This document shows, piece by piece, positions 1,668 to 57,930 of a DNA stretch of 64,000 bases. Under the pieces are notes generated by a model. It was given only the letters and a program-made list of their open reading frames with translations, was not told where the DNA came from and did no database searches. Numbering within the stretch: the stretch's first letter is position 1; every line of letters begins with the position of its first letter. Origin of the DNA: an uncultured Acidobacteriota bacterium (GTDB taxonomy: Bacteria > Acidobacteriota > Vicinamibacteria > Fen-336); assembly GCA_964442185.1 (NCBI GenBank), contig CAYTWT010000257.1, forward strand, positions 97,979 through 161,978, written 5' to 3'. The translations under genes and the position numbers were made by a program.

Positions 1668-3409
1668 CGCGAGCGCTCGAAGACGATGCGCTCGAGCCAC
1701 GCGGCCCCCGGCGCATCCGCCTCGAAACTCACTTCGTTCAGCTCGCGATGCCAGCGTTCTTGTGGAACCGTGATCCGCCGCTCGCCAAGGCGTTCGCCGA
1801 GCCGCACCGCTCCGACGCGGGTTCCGTTGACTGCGAGCCGGAGCGTGCCGTCCCCTCGAACGCGCAGCACCAGCGTCAGGCTCTCGGGCACGTCAAGGGG
1901 CGCAAACAAGCGCGCGTTACCGAGAACGGCGCGGCAGAGCGAGTCCTCGCAAGGCCGCGCCGAACTCCAGCCCTCGCCGAAGAGGCTTGGATCCGCGCGT
2001 GGGTCACCCGCGGCGATCACGCCGCCGAGGTTGTTCTGCCGGTAGAAGAGGTATTTGCCGACTGCCAGGTCGAAGCCGGCCACCGGGGCTTTGTGTTCGG
2101 CGGCGAAAACCCAGTTGGCGGGCCAGGCGAGCGGCGTGCCGACACTCTCGCTCAGGATGGCGGCGCCGTTCTCCGTGATCCGCGCGAAGCTCACGGTCTC
2201 GTCCTGCGGCAGCCGGCTGGCGCGGTACTGCGCCATCAGGAGCGTGTTCCACAGCACCAATAGCGCACCCGTGGCGGCGAGCACAGCGGCCGGCCGGCGC
2301 GCGGCGGCGCGCTCGAGGCCGGCTACCGCATGGGCGAGGCCCAGGGCGAGGATCGGCAGCAATGAATCGAAGCGGCGATTCGAGAAGGAACCGCCCGCCC
2401 ACCAGTCACCCGAACAGACGTTCACGTACCCCATGACCAGCACGGGCGCGAGCAGCGTGAAGCCCGTACGCGCGTCACGGCTCAAGAAGGCGAGGTAGCC
2501 GAGGAGCGCGCCCCACAGCACCGGCGTCCAGTAGAGCAGCCCGTGACGCGATGAAAACAGCGTCTGCAGCAGGTACGGATGGTCGAGCCGCAGGAAGTCG
2601 CGCCCGTGCGGCGGATCCGCGAGCAGATACTGGCCGAAGATCGCTTTCCACGCGAGCAACTGCGGGAAGGCGCCCAGCGCGAACGCGAGCAGCGTGAGGC
2701 TCAGGGCGCCCAGCATCCTGGCGCTCGAGCGTCGGCGCGCGGACAGCAGCGATAGGGCTGGAAGCAGGAGGAATACGGCGTTCTGCCAACGCACCGTGGC
2801 GGCCAGGCCGATCAGCCCGCCCAGCGCCACAGCACGGAGCAGGCTCATCTCTCGCCGCGCGGGCCACCAGAGCGCGAGGATCGCGGCGGCCAGAAAGAAG
2901 CTGCCCGGGTGGCTCATGACCGGCTCGCACACCGCATACCAGCAGAGGAAGGTCGCATAGAACGCGACCAGAATCGTGACGTCCGCGGCCGCAGGCGCGA
3001 CGACGTCTGCCAGCACCCCGCGCAGCAGGAGCAGGCCTGCCACGATGTAGGCAAGGCTCCCGAGACAGACGGCACGGATGTGCCAGGGCGAATAGCCGTC
3101 TAGGACGTCGCCCTGGGCGCGGGCGGCGAGGTCTCCGGCGGCGTAGAACGGCATCCACAGCAGCGCCGGGCCGACCGAGAAGATCGTCCGGCGGTGGCCG
3201 GTGACCGTCTTCACCAGCTTGTCGCCGCGGGTCAGGATCCCGAAGTGCTCGAACTCGTTCGCGAAATCGAGGTCATGATCGAAATACAGCGAGCGCAGGT
3301 GCGAGTAGTACTCCACGGCGTCGGCCGTGAGGCGCGGGACGGGAAGTGAGAGCTGGACCAAGAACGCTGGAAAGGCGAGCGCCAGGGCGAGCAGGAGAGA
3401 GCGTTTCAC
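1664..3409 (-). CDS. Polytopic membrane protein, GT-C-like paralog 1, with a C-terminal soluble domain
   Basis: The N-terminal ~400 aa carry many hydrophobic spans. The first loop has EYYSHLRSLYFDHDLDFANEFEHFG, shared with the ORFs at 4728 and 11332. The start is a GTG at 3409 overlapping the upstream TGA (GTGA). Confidence 0.7.
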   Translation of the reverse strand: MKRSLLLALALAFPAFLVQLSLPVPRLTADAVEYYSHLRSLYFDHDLDFANEFEHFGILTRGDKLVKTVTGHRRTIFSVGPALLWMPFYAAGDLAARAQGDVLDGYSPWHIRAVCLGSLAYIVAGLLLLRGVLADVVAPAAADVTILVAFYATFLCWYAVCEPVMSHPGSFFLAAAILALWWPARREMSLLRAVALGGLIGLAATVRWQNAVFLLLPALSLLSARRRSSARMLGALSLTLLAFALGAFPQLLAWKAIFGQYLLADPPHGRDFLRLDHPYLLQTLFSSRHGLLYWTPVLWGALLGYLAFLSRDARTGFTLLAPVLVMGYVNVCSGDWWAGGSFSNRRFDSLLPILALGLAHAVAGLERAAARRPAAVLAATGALLVLWNTLLMAQYRASRLPQDETVSFARITENGAAILSESVGTPLAWPANWVFAAEHKAPVAGFDLAVGKYLFYRQNNLGGVIAAGDPRADPSLFGEGWSSARPCEDSLCRAVLGNARLFAPLDVPESLTLVLRVRGDGTLRLAVNGTRVGAVRLGERLGERRITVPQERWHRELNEVSFEADAPGAAWLERIVFERSR

Positions 3410-17880: not shown

Positions 17881-19013
17881 GGCGGCGAGCGCTACGGCGA
17901 TCCTGGAAATCCGCTGTCGCAGTGTCGAGCCGCCTCCGCCTGGGCAGTCTAGGGAGAGCCCTCCGGGGTGTCAAAGGGCCGCGCCCCCTTCGGTGTGCTA
18001 TCGTCGCGCGTTCCAGAAGCGGAGGGCCGAACACGCTGAGCCTGGTCGCGTTCCGCGGCGCGATCGCCGCGGGCCTACTGCTGTTGGTGGTCTTCGCCGC
18101 GTTGCGCTACGCCTGGCGGGCCACGCCCCGCCTCGAGGCCGGCGCGCTGCCCGTCGCCCTATCGGTGGCCTGCGTGTGGCCCGTGGCGCTCGCGGCGACC
18201 CCCGGTCCGACACGATGTCTCTCGGGAATCGCCGACGATCCCCTGGCCTTCTTCGAAGCCTCGCCGTGTCCACCGGCCGAGCGCTTGCTGCTGTGGCCGC
18301 TTGCGGAACTCCTCGGCGAAGGCCTGGCGGCCACCGCCCTGGAGGCGGCGGCCGTGGGCGTGGCCCTGCTGCTCGTCCATGTGCTTGCGCGGGGGGCCTT
18401 GGCCTCGGCCGGCGCCGCGACCTTCGCGCAGGCCGGCCTCGCGCTCCTGTTCGTGACCGCGCTCGAGACATCGGCGGGCGTCGCGGTGACCCTTGCCCTG
18501 GAGCTTCTGTTCCTCGCACACCTTTTCCGCCGCTACGCGCACCTGGCCGGGGCGCGCGATGCGGCGGCCACCACGGCCTACGCGCTCGGCGCGCAGCTCG
18601 GGGGTGAAGGCGCGTCGCTCGACGTCGCCGTCCTGGTCAGCGTGTTCAGCCTCGTCGAGTTCCTGTGGGGTGTGCGGGGGTCCGCGCGGCGGCTGCTCGC
18701 CGGCTGGGCCATCGCGACGGCTGTCGTCGTGGCTGCCGGGGCCGCGCCGTGGCGTGGGCTCGTGTGGGCCGAAGCATCGCTAGAGCGCACCGCCACGGCC
18801 AGCCTGACCGCGGGTGGGCTGTTGGCCCTGATCGGCCTCGTCGCGACGACACAAATGGTGGCGGGCCGCAGGCGCCTGCTGGGGGCGGCGCTCGTGGCGG
18901 GCGTGCTGCGCCTCTCGACGGGCCCGCCGCTCATGCTGGTGGGGCCGCTGGCCGCCCTCGCCGCGCTCGGTCTGGAACGGATCGTGCGCGGGGCGAAGAA
19001 GCCTGCTGCCTAA
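17841..19013 (+). CDS. Hypothetical polytopic membrane protein (possibly Wzy-like); start uncertain
   Basis: About 10 hydrophobic helices, and the opposite-strand ORFs here are Arg/Pro-rich artefacts. The first ~60 aa are Arg-rich and overlap the divergent start of the 16075..17880 gene, so the real start may lie near 18030. Confidence 0.45.
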   Translation: MARAVAPPRRRAARRRALRRSWKSAVAVSSRLRLGSLGRALRGVKGPRPLRCAIVARSRSGGPNTLSLVAFRGAIAAGLLLLVVFAALRYAWRATPRLEAGALPVALSVACVWPVALAATPGPTRCLSGIADDPLAFFEASPCPPAERLLLWPLAELLGEGLAATALEAAAVGVALLLVHVLARGALASAGAATFAQAGLALLFVTALETSAGVAVTLALELLFLAHLFRRYAHLAGARDAAATTAYALGAQLGGEGASLDVAVLVSVFSLVEFLWGVRGSARRLLAGWAIATAVVVAAGAAPWRGLVWAEASLERTATASLTAGGLLALIGLVATTQMVAGRRRLLGAALVAGVLRLSTGPPLMLVGPLAALAALGLERIVRGAKKPAA

Positions 19014-20504: not shown

Positions 20505-21482
20505 TCAGACGCGGCCCTTGTCCGACGTGAAGTAGGCGCTCACGCGGTCGAGGATCTCGTCCAGATGCACCTGCGGCTCGTAGCCGATCAGGGCCGTGAG
20601 CTTCGAGGTGTCCGGCACGCGCCGGGGCATGTCCTCGAAGCCCTCCTCGTAGGCCTTGGCGTAGGGGACGAGAACGATCTCGCTCTTCGAGCGGGTGCGC
20701 TCCTTGACCCGCATGGCGAGATCGAGGATCGTGATTTCTTCCGTGCTGTTGCCGATGTTGAAGACCTGGCCGACGGCGCCCTCTTGATCGGCAAGCCGAA
20801 CCAGGGCGTCCACAACGTCGCTCACATACGTGAAGCAGCGTCTCTGGGTGCCGTCGCCGAAGACCGTGAGCGGGTGGCCGAGCAGGGCCTGCTTGACGAA
20901 GTTCGGGACCACCATGCCGTAGCGGCCGGTCTGGCGCGGGCCCACGGTGTTGAACAGCCGCACGATCACCACCGGCAGCCGCTTCTCCTTGAAGTACGCG
21001 AGCGCCAGGAATTCGTCGATGGCCTTGCTGCACGCGTAGCTCCAGCGGCCCTTGCTGGTCGGCCCGAGCACGAGATCGGCCTCTTCGTGGAACGGCACGT
21101 CGTTGCTCTTGCCGTAGACCTCCGAGGTCGAGGCCAAGAGCACCTTCTTCTTCTTCTTGTTCGCGAGCTTCAGCACCATCTCGGTCCCGTGGACGTTGGT
21201 CTCGATGGTGTTGACCGGGCTCTCGACGATGAGCCTCACACCCACGGCTGCGGCCAGATGGAAGATCACGTCCACGCGGTCGATCAACTCGGCGCAGACC
21301 GGCTCGTTCGTGACGCTGTCGATGGCATAGTGGAAGCGCGGATTCGGCTTCAGCGGCTCGATGTTCTCGATCGAGCCTGTCGAAAGGTTGTCGAGGACGA
21401 AGACCTCGTCGCCGCGTGCGAGCAGCGCCTCGGCCAGGTGGCTTCCCACGAAGCCGGCGCCGCCGGTGATCAAGGCCTTCAT
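20505..21482 (-). CDS. NAD-dependent epimerase/dehydratase (SDR, UDP-sugar epimerase/decarboxylase-like)
   Basis: MKALITGGAGFVGSHL...YACSK (YxxxK). Contains a KKKKK run encoded by (AAG)5. Confidence 0.85.
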   Translation of the reverse strand: MKALITGGAGFVGSHLAEALLARGDEVFVLDNLSTGSIENIEPLKPNPRFHYAIDSVTNEPVCAELIDRVDVIFHLAAAVGVRLIVESPVNTIETNVHGTEMVLKLANKKKKKVLLASTSEVYGKSNDVPFHEEADLVLGPTSKGRWSYACSKAIDEFLALAYFKEKRLPVVIVRLFNTVGPRQTGRYGMVVPNFVKQALLGHPLTVFGDGTQRRCFTYVSDVVDALVRLADQEGAVGQVFNIGNSTEEITILDLAMRVKERTRSKSEIVLVPYAKAYEEGFEDMPRRVPDTSKLTALIGYEPQVHLDEILDRVSAYFTSDKGRV

Positions 21483-52130: not shown

Positions 52131-54139
52131 TCGGCGGTGCGCTGCTCAGCCTGGTTCTCGCCGCGGCTGGCGCGAGCGCCCCGGTCACCCGCCTCGACAA
52201 AATGGCGCGCCTGGCATCGCTCGAAGACCGGCGCACGGCGGGCGCTGGCGAACTCGAACGCCTGATCCGCGATCCCGACAAGGGCGTGCGGCGGCGTGCC
52301 GCGCTGGCGGCGGGGCGTATTGCCGATTCCGGCGTGGTTCCGGCTCTCGTCGACCTCATGAACGACCCGGATCCGGAGCTGCGGCAAATGGCGGCCTTCG
52401 GCCTGGGCCTGATCGGCGACCGGCAGGCCGTGCAGCGCCTCGTCGCGTCGCTCAAGGATGTCGACGCCGTCGTGCGCGCGCGTTCGGCCGAGGCCCTGGG
52501 CCGGATCGGCGATGTCCGCGCCGCGGGCGATGTCGTGCAAATGATCCTCGAGGCGATGCCGAAGGGCGCGGCCGTGGTGAGCGTGCGCGGCGACGATCCG
52601 GGCAACCCGTACGATCCCTGGCTGGAGTTACGGCTGGGGCTGTTTGCGCTGGCGCGGCTCAAGGACGCGAAGGCCGCCGAGGCCGCCTTGCTCTCGAACG
52701 GCCGCGCCCGCTTCGACTGGTGGGCGGCGGCCTTCACAGCGATGCGCCTCGAGAGCCCGCTGCTCCGGCCCGCGCTGCTCGCGGCAGCGGAGTCGGACGA
52801 TCGGCTGGCGCGCGCGTACGCCGCCCACGGACTCGGCGCGCTCAAGGACGCTTCGGCCATCGACACGCTCGCGACACTGGCGCGTGACCTTGATGAAACA
52901 GTGGTGGTGAATGCGCTCCGGGCGCTGACCACGATCGGCGACCCACGCGGCACGGCGATTGCTGCGTCCACACTGGCGTCGCCAAGCCTCACGATCAAGC
53001 GCGAGGCGCTCTTGGCGTTGGCCGCGCTGCCCCCCGATCGCGGCCTGCGCGGGCGTGTCGTTCCCTACGTCGGCCACGAGCAGGCCGTGATCCGCGCCGC
53101 GGCGCTCTCGGCGCTAGCCAGGATCGACCCTGACGAGTTCGCCCTGGTGCTCTCGGGCCTCGACCCCGACCCCGCTTGGTTCGTGCGCGGAGCCCTTGCC
53201 ACGGCGCTGGGCGAGCGCGCCGACGAGCAGAGCGTCGGGATCCTGTTTGGACTGCTGAAGGATTCCGACGTGCGGGTCCTGCCCTATGTTCTCGCGGCGA
53301 TGCGCAAGGCGCGCGGCAGCGACGCTGCCGAAACTCTCAAGGGTCATCTCGATCATCCAGACATGGCGGTGCGCACCGCAGCCATCGAGAACCTGGCCCA
53401 GTTGAAGATGCCGGGCGTGGGCGCCAGCCTGGTCGCGGCGCTCAAGGCGGGCGCCAGCGACCGCGAGATCGACGCGCGCGCGGCCGCCATTGCCGGCCTC
53501 GCCGAGCAGAAGGACGCTGCAGCCAAGGCCGCACTGCGCGAGGCGGCGGCGAGCGACCCCTCGCGCGTGCTGCGCGTGCAGGCGGGCGCAGCCCTCGTCG
53601 CCCTCGGCGAGACGCCTCCGGCGCCCGGTCCCGAGGACCTGCTGCGCCCGAGCCTCGACTACCGCGAGGCGATGGCCCCTTTCGACCCGCCGTCTGGCTC
53701 GACGCTCTACACGCCGCGCGCGATCCTCCACACGCGCAAGGGCAAGATCGAGATCCACCTCAATGTCGTCGAAGCGCCGCTCACCGCACAGAACTTCATC
53801 GACCTGGCGCGCCGTGGTTTCTACGACGGGCTCAGCTTCCATCGCGTGGTGCCGGGCTTCCTGGTCCAGGGTGGCTGCCCGCGCGGCGACGGCAACGGCG
53901 GGCCCGGGTACATGCTGCGTTGCGAGATCGGCGAAAGGCCCTATGGCCGCGCCGCCGTGGGCATGGCGCTCTCCGGGAAGGACACCGGCGGGAGCCAGTT
54001 CTTCATCACGCACGTGCCGACGCCGCACCTGGACGGCGGCTACACGCTCTTCGGGTGGGTGGCGAGCGGCATGGACGTCGTCGACCAGATTCAGCCCGGC
54101 GACACGATCGACAAGGTGGAGATCTGGGACGGGAGGTAG
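52127..54139 (+). CDS. Secreted HEAT-repeat (PBS-lyase type) protein fused to a C-terminal cyclophilin-type peptidyl-prolyl isomerase
   Basis: Signal-like MIGGALLSLVLAAAGASA, about 12 HEAT-like repeats (…GRIADSGVVPALVDLMNDPDPELRQMAAFGLG…), and a C-terminal cyclophilin (FHRVVPGFLVQGG...GSQFFIT). ATG 52127 overlaps the nth TGA (ATGA). Confidence 0.75.
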   Translation: MIGGALLSLVLAAAGASAPVTRLDKMARLASLEDRRTAGAGELERLIRDPDKGVRRRAALAAGRIADSGVVPALVDLMNDPDPELRQMAAFGLGLIGDRQAVQRLVASLKDVDAVVRARSAEALGRIGDVRAAGDVVQMILEAMPKGAAVVSVRGDDPGNPYDPWLELRLGLFALARLKDAKAAEAALLSNGRARFDWWAAAFTAMRLESPLLRPALLAAAESDDRLARAYAAHGLGALKDASAIDTLATLARDLDETVVVNALRALTTIGDPRGTAIAASTLASPSLTIKREALLALAALPPDRGLRGRVVPYVGHEQAVIRAAALSALARIDPDEFALVLSGLDPDPAWFVRGALATALGERADEQSVGILFGLLKDSDVRVLPYVLAAMRKARGSDAAETLKGHLDHPDMAVRTAAIENLAQLKMPGVGASLVAALKAGASDREIDARAAAIAGLAEQKDAAAKAALREAAASDPSRVLRVQAGAALVALGETPPAPGPEDLLRPSLDYREAMAPFDPPSGSTLYTPRAILHTRKGKIEIHLNVVEAPLTAQNFIDLARRGFYDGLSFHRVVPGFLVQGGCPRGDGNGGPGYMLRCEIGERPYGRAAVGMALSGKDTGGSQFFITHVPTPHLDGGYTLFGWVASGMDVVDQIQPGDTIDKVEIWDGR

Positions 54140-54966
54140 GCCCGTTCCAACTCCTAGCACTCGACATCGACGGCACGCTGCTCGGGCGCGACAAGCGGGT
54201 CTCGCCGCGCACGCGGGCAGCCCTGGTGGCGGCGCTCGCGCGTGACGTGCGCGTTCTGCTCGTGACCGGCCGCCGCCCCCCTGCCGCGCGTCAAGTGGCG
54301 GCGCAGATCGCGCCGGACCTGCCGATGGTGGCGAACAACGGCGGCCTGCTCATCGAGGCCGGCGCGATCATCCGCCGCCGCCCGTTGTCATGCGAGCTGG
54401 CACGCGAAGCCATAGCTGTGGGAAAGGCGTGCGCTGCGGATCCGGTCGTGCACTCCGGCCCGAATGGCGAGGGCCGGCTGCTCGTCGAGTCGGGGGCACT
54501 GGGCCACACGCTCCGCGCCTACTACATCGACACCTCGAACCCCGCGGTCGCGCAGTTCGAAGCGCTCGAGGCGGCTGTCGTCGAGGATGTGGTCCAGGTG
54601 ATGTTCGGCGGCGAGCTTGCCGCGATGGACGCGCTTTTACCCCAGCTACAGGCGGCGCTCGGAAGTTCCGTCAACATCGAGCGCACGGTCTATCCAGCGC
54701 TCGGCATCGGCCTCATCGACGTGATGGCGGCTGGTGTTGCGAAGAGCGAAGCGGTCAGCTTCTTCGAGAGGCGCTGGGGGATCCTGGCCTGCCGCACCCT
54801 CGCAATCGGTGACAACTGGAACGACCGGGGCATGCTCGAGCAGGCGGGGCTGGGCTTCGTCATGGGCAACGCCGACCCGGCCATGCATCGCCTGGGGCTG
54901 CCCGTGCTCCCCTCGAACGAGGACGACGGTGTCGCCATCGCCATCGAGGAACATGTTCTCAAATAA
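54139..54966 (+). CDS. Cof-type HAD-IIB phosphatase; start codon unresolved
   Basis: LALDIDGTLL...LLVTGRRP...GDNWNDRGMLEQAGLGFVMGNA. The frame is open upstream, but there is no ATG/GTG/TTG between the cyclophilin TAG (54137-39) and the DxD motif. Confidence 0.6.
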   Translation, partial: GPFQLLALDIDGTLLGRDKRVSPRTRAALVAALARDVRVLLVTGRRPPAARQVAAQIAPDLPMVANNGGLLIEAGAIIRRRPLSCELAREAIAVGKACAADPVVHSGPNGEGRLLVESGALGHTLRAYYIDTSNPAVAQFEALEAAVVEDVVQVMFGGELAAMDALLPQLQAALGSSVNIERTVYPALGIGLIDVMAAGVAKSEAVSFFERRWGILACRTLAIGDNWNDRGMLEQAGLGFVMGNADPAMHRLGLPVLPSNEDDGVAIAIEEHVLK

Positions 54967-54970
54967 AGAA

Positions 54971-54995
54971 GGGGGTGATTGCTCACCCCCTTTTC
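54971..54995. terminator. Rho-independent terminator hairpin, bidirectional
   Basis: GGGGGTGA-ttgc-TCACCCCC followed by TTTTC on the plus strand. The minus-strand reading is followed by TTCTTTATTT. It lies 5 nt after the TAA of the HAD gene. Confidence 0.8.
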
Positions 54996-55059
54996 GTGGG
55001 CTGACCTCGTTGCTGCTTTCTTCTTGGTGGCTGCTTCCGGCTAGCCACGAAAAGAATCA

Positions 55060-55086
55060 GGGGGGTGATCGGTCCACCCCCCTTTT
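55060..55086. terminator. Second GC-rich hairpin, possibly a bidirectional terminator
   Basis: GGGGGGTG-atcggtc-CACCCCCC followed by TTTT on the plus strand and by TGATTCTTTTCG on the minus strand. On the minus strand it starts about 12 nt after the micro-ORF stop. Confidence 0.7.
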
Positions 55087-55099
55087 CCCCGGGGCGATA

Positions 55100-55147
55100 C
55101 TACTTCTTCTTCTTCGCCGCCTTCTTCGCCTTCTTCTTCGCCGCCAT
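55100..55147 (-). CDS. Micro-ORF encoding MAAKKKAKKAAKKKK (15 aa) with a strong Shine-Dalgarno
   Basis: Base-by-base translation of the minus strand gives ATG GCG GCG (AAG)3 GCG (AAG)2 GCG GCG (AAG)4 TAG. AAAGGGGGGA lies 10 nt upstream of the ATG. Not in the ORF track because it is under 60 aa. Confidence 0.4.
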   Translation of the reverse strand: MAAKKKAKKAAKKKK

Positions 55148-55682
55148 GGTTGTTAATCCCCCCTTTCGGTCCAGGAATGGACGGAGATCTCGCCCCTCGA
55201 TCAACATCTCGGGTGACAAGGAGCCTTGCATACTACAGGTAGGGTAGGGAGCCCCCCGAACCTTGTCAAGTACTTTTTTCGGTCACAACAGCGGCATACC
55301 GCAGAAGGCGCGAGGCTTAGCCTGTGGACGCAGGTACGGAATCCGACTTCAGCCGCTCTGGGCGCTGTCGAAACGTATGTGCGCCTCAGGAAACGCCTGA
55401 CCCTGAAGCGCTTCAGGCCGATCGGCGCTACCCGGGCAGCGAGACCTCATTGCGCTTGGAGTAGAATACTACTTGGAATGCTTATGCTCGGCGGTGTCGC
55501 GCGCGCTGGCCGCTTGCGTTCTGCCTTCCGGCATAGCGCCAGCGCGGCCAGGTAGGCGGGCATCGGATCGTCGGGCGCTGCCGTGGCCAAGGCGGCGAGC
55601 TGTTCGAGCGGCGCGCTGAGATCTGCATCCGTGGTCCGCGCGCCGCTCCTGAGCGCCGCTGCGACGACGAACGCCCCGAGCA

Positions 55683-57930
<2,248 letters not shown>

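Follow-up and report, generated by a model that had tools for sequence, protein, structure and literature searches.

We analysed a 64,000-nt stretch of contig CAYTWT010000257.1 (hereafter the window) from an uncultured bacterium of the Acidobacteriota class Vicinamibacteria, and describe a very short open reading frame (ORF) on its minus strand whose codons after the start specify only lysine and alanine. The micro-ORF (55147-55100, minus strand) reads ATG GCG GCG (AAG)3 GCG (AAG)2 GCG GCG (AAG)4 TAG and encodes MAAKKKAKKAAKKKK in 15 codons before the stop; it is the sole Lys-rich ATG ORF within the 64-kb window. An initial annotation, made from the letters alone, had described a Lys/Ala micro-ORF with a strong Shine-Dalgarno sequence (SD) ahead of two strong hairpins, and all of these were recovered from the minus-strand sequence. 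Its count of ten Lys codons was corrected to nine AAG (9/15 codons, behind the strong SD), and the feature is present as described but reaches ~130 nt further upstream than proposed, to a promoter at 55279-55241. The whole unit occupies ~55280-54959 on the minus strand and comprises the promoter, an 85-nt leader, the micro-ORF, a hairpin (T1), a decayed second copy of the gene and a terminator (T2). Upstream on the same strand lies ddl, encoding D-Ala-D-Ala ligase; on the other side a Cof-type HAD gene runs convergently and ends at 54966, with a HEAT-repeat/cyclophilin gene beyond it. No structural gene follows on the strand of the micro-ORF, as the initial annotation had observed. The G+C content at the locus is ~0.56 vs 0.69 overall, and the third-position G+C (GC3) signal of long ORFs is absent.

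Using ddl as the anchor, 80 genome loci were fetched, in which the best ddl identity to the window was 88%. All syntenic Vicinamibacteria loci of sufficient sequence length carried a Lys/Ala micro-ORF past ddl, on the ddl strand and behind GAAAGGGGGGAU, often in two tandem copies (L008 and L015 copy 1 were recovered through the covariance model described below); ~40 ddl loci of other phyla (~0.5 Mb) yielded none. Metagenomes were scanned with the leader/SD junction GGACYGAAAGGGGGGAT rather than with the ORF, and 121 matches to the junction 17-mer were obtained. In 86 of them a Lys/Ala ORF begins 5-8 nt further on; the others appear to be chance 17-mers. The scan added ~60 further Vicinamibacteria-type units, bringing to ~100 the Vicinamibacteria loci (~38 genome and ~60 metagenome) that hold the unit at the same place, after ddl and facing the convergent HAD/cyclophilin genes. 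It also revealed a second lineage of lower G+C content.

This lineage 2 consists of Chthoniobacterales-like Verrucomicrobiota and encodes MAAKKKAKK(A)PAKKKAAAKKKKH with a promoter, hairpins and terminator of its own. Its units stand in the order coaBC, unit, terminator, IMPase and ispF, or have a tRNA gene downstream (L139), and its IMPase is 85-90% identical to proteins annotated as Chthoniobacterales/Verrucomicrobiota. The 17-mer GGACYGAAAGGGGGGAU is common to the Vicinamibacteria units (lineage 1) and the Verrucomicrobial lineage. The family as a whole numbers 147 distinct units of 11 to >56 codons in two phyla, with tandem pairs on 50/125 locus-strands. Longer members of 36, 47, 52-58 and at least 57 residues stand behind the same junction or leader (L008 and L141 with 52-58 residues or more). 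In L008 (7525-7694, plus strand) the same leader precedes a longer, complex Lys-rich ORF, MPAKKKLTKTQKKKVVKKLAKTKKGRKVLKK..., of at least 57 residues that is cut by the contig end. The gene calls of a 4.18-Mb Chthoniobacterales-like contig (L201) leave a gap of 324 nt (2677-3001, plus strand), and this gap holds a complete unit, whose junction differs by a single base (GGATCGAAAGGGGGGAT) and whose ORF is MAKKKAKKAPAKKKAAAKKKKH.

The frame, on whose conservation the initial annotation had made the feature depend, is kept across relatives. Among the 147 units the start is ATG in 143 and GTG in 4, residue 2 is Pro, Ala or Lys, and the stop is always TAA or TAG directly past the last basic residue. 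AAG outnumbers AAA by 490 to 6 in the high-GC lineage, in which all four Ala codons are in use, and by 213 to 147 in the lower-GC lineage, where CAT/CAC and GCT/GCA synonymous changes and whole-codon insertions and deletions occur. Pairwise comparison of orthologous first copies gave 688/442/1133 differences at codon positions 1/2/3, vs a flat 5680/6260/6024 in the leader, which served as the control, and as many as 8 nucleotide versions exist for a single peptide sequence. Differences in ORF length come in whole codons; leader lengths spread 12/10/9 over the residues modulo 3. The family thus displays the generic marks of protein-coding sequence, namely an excess of third-position and synonymous change, whole-codon insertions and deletions, and kept starts and stops. 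At the peptide level, the two phyla share an N-terminal M-(A/P)-A-K-K-K and a basic C-terminus despite differing codon usage. CGN accounts for 19/31 Arg codons, and since replacement of Lys by Arg via CGN keeps the charge and breaks the purine run, it speaks against an (AAG)n motif that acts solely at the RNA level. The coding signature and the conserved frame support the genuine polybasic micro-protein that the initial annotation had listed as an alternative, and on these comparisons we regard a real, translated and independent micro-gene as highly probable.

The conservation extends to the predicted promoter, which consists of an A-tract (55279-55274), a -35 element TTGACA (55269-55264), a 17-nt spacer and a -10 element TACCCT (55246-55241), with a C-rich stretch between the -10 element and the start site. 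The A-tract/CTTGACA/N17/TAC(C/G)CT block is kept in 31/31 genome loci, and the deep-branching L039 and L044 have CATAAT as the -10 element at the same spacing. The best sigma-70-like promoter match within the window is TTGACA-N17-TAGACT at 17946-17974 (minus strand), with 10/12 positions. At the predicted transcript start stands TAGTATG (55235-55229), invariant in the 31-sequence alignment and present as T(A/G)GTATG in 93 units; we infer that transcription begins near its A at 55234, 7 nt past the -10 element. The AUG within TAGTATG (55231) opens no conserved frame. In the window it begins a 43-codon ORF (55231-55100), which was rejected as in-frame by coincidence, its frame relative to the micro-ORF being spread 9/10/12 across the loci and its stops varying. 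In one clade of 14 loci the same AUG opens a constant 20-codon upstream ORF ending with UGA just upstream of the SD.

The leader is 85 nt long in the window and 82-88 nt across relatives. Its first hairpin, P1 (55224-55192), pairs GCUCCUUG (55224-55217) with CGAGGGGC (55199-55192) around a conserved 17-nt loop (55216-55200). P1 forms in 31/31 genome leaders and in 85/85 distinct leaders, with varied arms and a conserved loop of 17-18 nt. Pairing of cognate arms gave -13.3 kcal/mol vs -10.1 kcal/mol for non-cognate arms, and 0/5000 permutations reached the cognate value. A covariance model built on the structure proposed in this analysis picks out a single leader in each lineage-1 locus and scores that of the window at 87.8 bits. 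On the alignment to this model, double (compensatory) changes occur at 4/6 pairs of P1, 87% of the P1 cells are paired vs 37-59% with the partners slid, and the covariation score is 0.222 vs 0.160 for shuffles (0/500); because the alignment was fitted to the model, the slid and shuffled controls outweigh the raw pairing percentage. The second hairpin, P2 (GUCCA-UUCC-UGGAC, 55182-55169), adjoins the SD and has 97% of its cells paired with a nearly invariant stem, and lineage 2 has a different hairpin, CCGC-N4-GCGG, at this position.

The extended SD, GAAAGGGGGGAU (55167-55156), lies 8 nt ahead of the AUG and is invariant in the lineage-1 alignment; the SDs of ordinary window genes are weaker. 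Taking CCUCCUUUC as the 3' tail of 16S rRNA, the SD GAAAGGGGG can form ~9 bp with it. Two further pairings were considered and rejected. Sequestration of the SD by the 5' arm of P1 or the 3' arm of T1, as proposed by RNAalifold, has no covariation behind it, and the 5' arm of P1 covaries with its own 3' arm. A pairing between the P1 loop and T1, whose sequences co-change between two clades, is lost in L020, L032 and L038. The Rfam search that the initial annotation had recommended was run over 54000-56500 and gave only chance-level matches at E <= 10 and no family match; a gathering-score scan of 8 related loci against Rfam returned nothing but one tRNA.

Downstream of the micro-ORF, a palindromic CCCCGGGG box (55094-55087) starts 5 nt past the stop, and not 14 nt past it as first reported. 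It is present in 26/31 first copies and missing wherever T1 is missing, and none of the pairings tried accounts for it. T1 (55083-55049) consists of the hairpin AGGGGGGTGgaccgatCACCCCCCT (55083-55059) with a 10-bp stem, and of the tail GATTCTTTTC, an interrupted U-tract at 55058-55049. T2 (54992-54959) likewise has a 10-bp stem in the hairpin AAGGGGGTGAgcaaTCACCCCCTT, that is, AAGGGGGUGA-gcaa-UCACCCCCUU (54992-54969), and its tail CTTTATTT (54968-54959) overlaps the stop codon of the HAD gene (54964-54966). Both combine a G+C-rich hairpin with a U-tract, as intrinsic terminators do, the tail of T2 being the cleaner, and in strength both rank near the top of the window's terminator-like hairpins. 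Their GGGGGTG..CACCCCC design occurs 2 times vs 0.00 expected and is seen in none of the other terminator-like hairpins there. The stems of T1 and T2 resemble an SD:anti-SD duplex (GGGGGGUG..CACCCCCC); the likeness is literal in some relatives, which have GGAGGUG..CACCUCC, and the Verrucomicrobial lineage (L084 etc.) has GGGAGGAGAA..UUCUCCUCCC. Loci in which stems of this kind were recorded include L109, L013 and L038. The sequence of the T2 stem itself, GGGGGUGAG..UCACCCCC, is kept across relatives.

By homology to relatives, the 66-nt spacer between the two terminators is taken to be a dead second copy of the gene (55053-54991), made up of the flanks UUUUCGUGGCU (55053-55043) and AGCCCACGAAAA (55002-54991) and a remnant, ccggaagcagccaccaagaagaaagcagcaacgagg (55040-55005), which reads ...AAGCAGCCACCAAGAAGAAAGCAGCA...; L001 and L002, the relatives nearest to the window, show the same decay. 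In 25 relatives an undamaged second Lys/Ala ORF, preceded by a G-run SD of its own, lies between the homologous flanks, and 8 of 11 segments without a second ORF (e.g. L020, L038 and L114) have lost it cleanly and kept the flanks and T2. The ends of the spacer can pair with each other, UUUUCGUGGCU with AGCCCACGAAAA. The initial annotation had proposed such a helix between UUUUCGUGGCU and AGCC(C)ACGAAAA; these segments correspond to the flanks of the second ORF copy in relatives, and the helix itself is plausible with little variation behind it (cognate -14.7 vs -14.0 kcal/mol, 25/5000 permutations). Several two-copy relatives have a hairpin without a U-tract after copy 1, which suggests read-through into copy 2, and both ORFs of two-copy loci are probably co-transcribed from a single promoter. 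The decayed copy also contains a 21-codon GTG ORF, VASRKQPPRRKQQRGQPTKRG (55048-54983, minus strand), which has no SD, is not conserved in L001/L002 and was taken as debris.

Members of the family are absent from the databases searched. In Pfam/NCBIfam, those of 15-30 residues gave no match at E <= 10, and the 36- and 47-residue members matched only families of histone H1-like proteins: PF07382 (17.5-20.5 bits, cut-off 40), NF038053 (15-18 bits, cut-off 80) and the Rv3852 family NF050153. H1-like scores overall were 14-20 bits vs cut-offs of 40-135, too low for membership in these families. The 57-residue form of L008 gave noise in Pfam/NCBIfam, no homologue in a large protein database and nothing meaningful in the PDB, and exact look-up of 9 peptide variants among 15 billion predicted proteins found none on record. 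The sole marginal match of the 47-residue form in the large protein database (P0001) was rejected as an AKK-repeat ORF of an AT-rich organism without the leader. This ORF, MATAKKTVAKKVVAKK(APAKKVVAKK)n, of 41 codons on an AT-rich contig (L202, 743-868, plus strand), ends with TAG and had been called as 70 residues by TAG read-through in its source; it has no G-run leader, and its composition is similar, but the organism is unrelated and homology is not claimed. A literature search found no description of such a gene, the sole tangential item being a Thr/Lys-codon small ORF upstream of an aspartate-pathway gene in S. meliloti (PMC10117765).

We lean, with modest confidence, towards a stand-alone and highly expressed micro-gene whose product is a polycation that binds nucleic acids by charge; the nucleic-acid-binding function of the peptide, taken by itself, is a tentative assignment that we hold slightly less firmly than an even bet. 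A sigma-70-type promoter (near-consensus; A-tract, TTGACA, 17 nt, TACCCT) would start a transcript of ~190-280 nt, the 85-nt leader of which would fold into the 5'-proximal P1 and the SD-adjoining P2. Ribosomes would load at the very long SD with very efficient initiation and make the 15-residue peptide with its 9 lysines, and T1/T2 would terminate a short, stable mRNA and protect its 3' side, with P1 protecting it close to the 5' end. The peptide probably loses its Met, given that Ala or Pro stands at residue 2; methionine aminopeptidase acts on Met ahead of these residues. The peptide, of the histone H1-tail type, would act by charge and composition rather than by a fixed fold. Its targets would be polyanions of the nucleoid or the ribosome, DNA or RNA being the likeliest. 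A polycation acting by charge would leave repeat number (11 to at least 56 residues) and copy number (1 or 2) free to float, with the Lys/Ala pattern, the start context and the expression signals kept. Since selection keeps composition and charge, and since the only database resemblance of the longer members, below threshold, is to H1-like proteins, the product is taken as a nucleic-acid-binding polycation.

Several observations weigh against this proposal. Structure prediction leaves the SD mostly paired (unpaired probability ~0.3 vs 0.43 over the transcript as a whole), a state more in keeping with regulated than with constitutive translation. A generic consensus promoter scan made no call at the micro-gene promoter because TACCCT matches TATAAT at only 3/6 positions, and the promoter is therefore assigned from its conservation. 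A PDB search with the family profile gave 0 matches at E <= 10, ribosome structures included; the resemblance to H1-like families is compositional and falls under every curated cut-off; and an unstructured peptide of 15 residues may be short-lived. Lastly, the non-coding parts are very strongly conserved, in particular TAGTATG, the P1 loop, the 17-nt junction across phyla, the CCCCGGGG box and the SD:anti-SD-like terminator stems, and this suggests that the RNA itself does something beyond its role as mRNA. Autoregulation of translation through the leader loop, the CCCCGGGG box or the terminator stems is one possibility. Taken furthest, the family might be a hitherto unrecognised cross-phylum set of some of the shortest bacterial genes for nucleic-acid-binding polycations, a free-standing 'histone tail' of 11-25 residues with a dedicated regulatory RNA (the covarying leader hairpin and its loop, the 17-nt junction, and the SD:anti-SD-like terminator stems) through which the peptide or the ribosome feeds back on its synthesis, an idea we consider speculative and rather unlikely as a whole.

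The conserved non-coding parts are also what speaks for the main rival explanation, in which the transcript is primarily a regulatory or structural RNA with the ORF secondary, as in a dual-function RNA: a small RNA, a sponge for Hfq through (ARN)n-like AAG repeats, or a sponge for ribosomes through the SD/anti-SD-like stems. P1 covaries, the flanks and T2 persist after loss of the second ORF, and the duplex-like terminator stems are unique in the window, all of which such an RNA would account for. However, the ORF carries a clear protein-coding signature, AAG is freely swapped for AAA and for CGN Arg codons, which breaks a fixed purine motif, and at least one intact ORF with an SD stands in every locus. 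Neither an Rfam match, even at E <= 10, nor complementarity to a target was identified. Known dual-function small RNAs (SgrS/SgrT, RNAIII/delta-haemolysin and SR1/SR1P) likewise are short, structured, independent RNAs with a tiny ORF and conserved non-coding segments; in the micro-gene, unlike in these, it is the ORF that forms the best-conserved functional module, and not an antisense seed. We therefore judge a primarily RNA-level function unlikely.

A very small ribosome-associated protein that fills a pocket of the rRNA, in the manner of bTHX, bS22, bL37 and eL41, is about as improbable an account. The peptide is tiny and extremely basic, it belongs with these proteins in size class (~24-33 residues), high Lys/Arg content and the ease with which annotation misses it, and a tRNA gene lies downstream in the lineage-2 locus L139. 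The promoter-like signals are strong, with an A-tract and a C-rich region ahead of the start site, a combination typical of growth-rate-controlled promoters, and the structured leader recalls those of autoregulated ribosomal-protein operons. Against this, lengths of 11 to >56 residues and one or two copies are unlike proteins made for a fixed rRNA site, and the family differs from the tiny ribosomal proteins in its low-complexity K/A repeat and the lack of any sequence similarity to them. No PDB chain, ribosomes included, resembles the family members, no ribosomal-protein model of NCBIfam matches them, and the unit is not linked to ribosomal-protein operons.

It is still less probable that the act of translation alone matters, through protection or folding of the RNA or through ribosome loading, with the peptide as a by-product. 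The very strong SD and the very short ORF, the predicted partial sequestration of the SD and the structured RNA flanking the ORF on both sides would suit such a role, but composition, the M-(A/P)-A-K-K-K start and the basic C-terminus are kept across two phyla, and a by-product would drift.

The weakest candidate is the one that the initial annotation had put first, a transcription-attenuation leader peptide in which the Lys-codon run senses lysyl-tRNA and chooses between a CCCC:GGGG antiterminator and T1, and it fails at the defining point, since in ~100 Vicinamibacteria loci zero same-strand genes lie downstream, only the convergent HAD/cyclophilin genes or a second copy, so that a classical attenuator is rejected there and the reading as a whole appears very improbable. 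In its favour, as in trpL, hisL, thrL and pheL, a very short ORF with a good SD and a run of a single codon stops close to a C-run/G-run/C-run and a G+C-rich hairpin with a U-tract, read-through occurs where T1 lacks its U-tract, as it often does in two-copy relatives, and the Verrucomicrobial lineage has an IMPase-ispF-cysS cluster on the same strand, sometimes right after the terminator. Read-through, however, reaches only the second ORF copy or its remnant and then a second strong terminator, and the neighbours, including IMPase, ispF, cysS and the tRNA gene of lineage 2, are unrelated to lysine. Pairing of CCCC at 55094-55091 to the T1 G-run is conceivable, and 3 pairs of this kind are proposed by RNAalifold, but this antiterminator of 3-4 bp stands against a 10-bp terminator, has no covariation, is not convincing, and draws on a CCCCGGGG box that is absent where T1 is absent. 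The micro-gene further differs from attenuator leaders in having its own conserved promoter, in ending at a convergent gene and in being under selection at the amino-acid level, visible in Lys-to-Arg changes via CGN, the kept N-terminus and expansion to >50 residues, none of which is expected of a pure codon sensor.

Two other features of the window were recorded. A second (AAG)5 run at 21144-21158 (minus strand) encodes KKKKK inside a 325-residue epimerase-like gene (20505-21482, minus strand) and is unrelated to the micro-gene. At 55499-55642 (minus strand) lies a 48-residue remnant (44% identity, E = 1.4e-5) of the N-terminus of a ~460-residue gene without a Pfam match, which is intact between ddl and the micro-gene in ~20 related genomes and deleted in the genome of the window.

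Returning to the polycation that we favour, its closest known counterparts are the H1-like proteins (Chlamydia Hc2/HctB, PF07382; the Burkholderia-type NF038053; the Rv3852 family, NF050153). The micro-gene family shares with them Lys/Ala-rich short tandem repeats of variable number, built here from (A/P/T)(A)KK(K) units and there from A/P/T-A-K-K repeats, together with extreme positive charge and repeat-number polymorphism. It differs in size, typically 15-17 residues vs 100-200, and, unlike the H1-like proteins, it has a tandem-gene architecture and a dedicated conserved leader RNA, which appears to be undescribed so far.

Vicinamibacteria and Chthoniobacterales are widespread soil lineages. 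Both are known mostly through metagenomes, and the gene is kept at a fixed locus by all Vicinamibacteria examined, with strong expression signals, yet it is not found in the protein and RNA databases searched. It would have been overlooked because it falls under the size limits of gene callers, is filtered as low-complexity sequence and is invisible to tryptic proteomics; short, low-complexity Lys-rich ORFs slip past gene callers, homology filters and tryptic mass spectrometry alike, which makes them a general blind spot. Provided that it is produced, the peptide would rank with the shortest gene products conserved in bacteria and would be a minimal natural model for the way in which Lys/Ala tails, such as those of histone H1, Hc2 and mycobacterial HupB, act on nucleic acids, and the conserved leader offers a concrete handle on the regulation of such a gene. 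On the furthest-reaching reading given above, two of the commonest groups of soil bacteria might possess an abundant yet overlooked component of the nucleoid or the ribosome.

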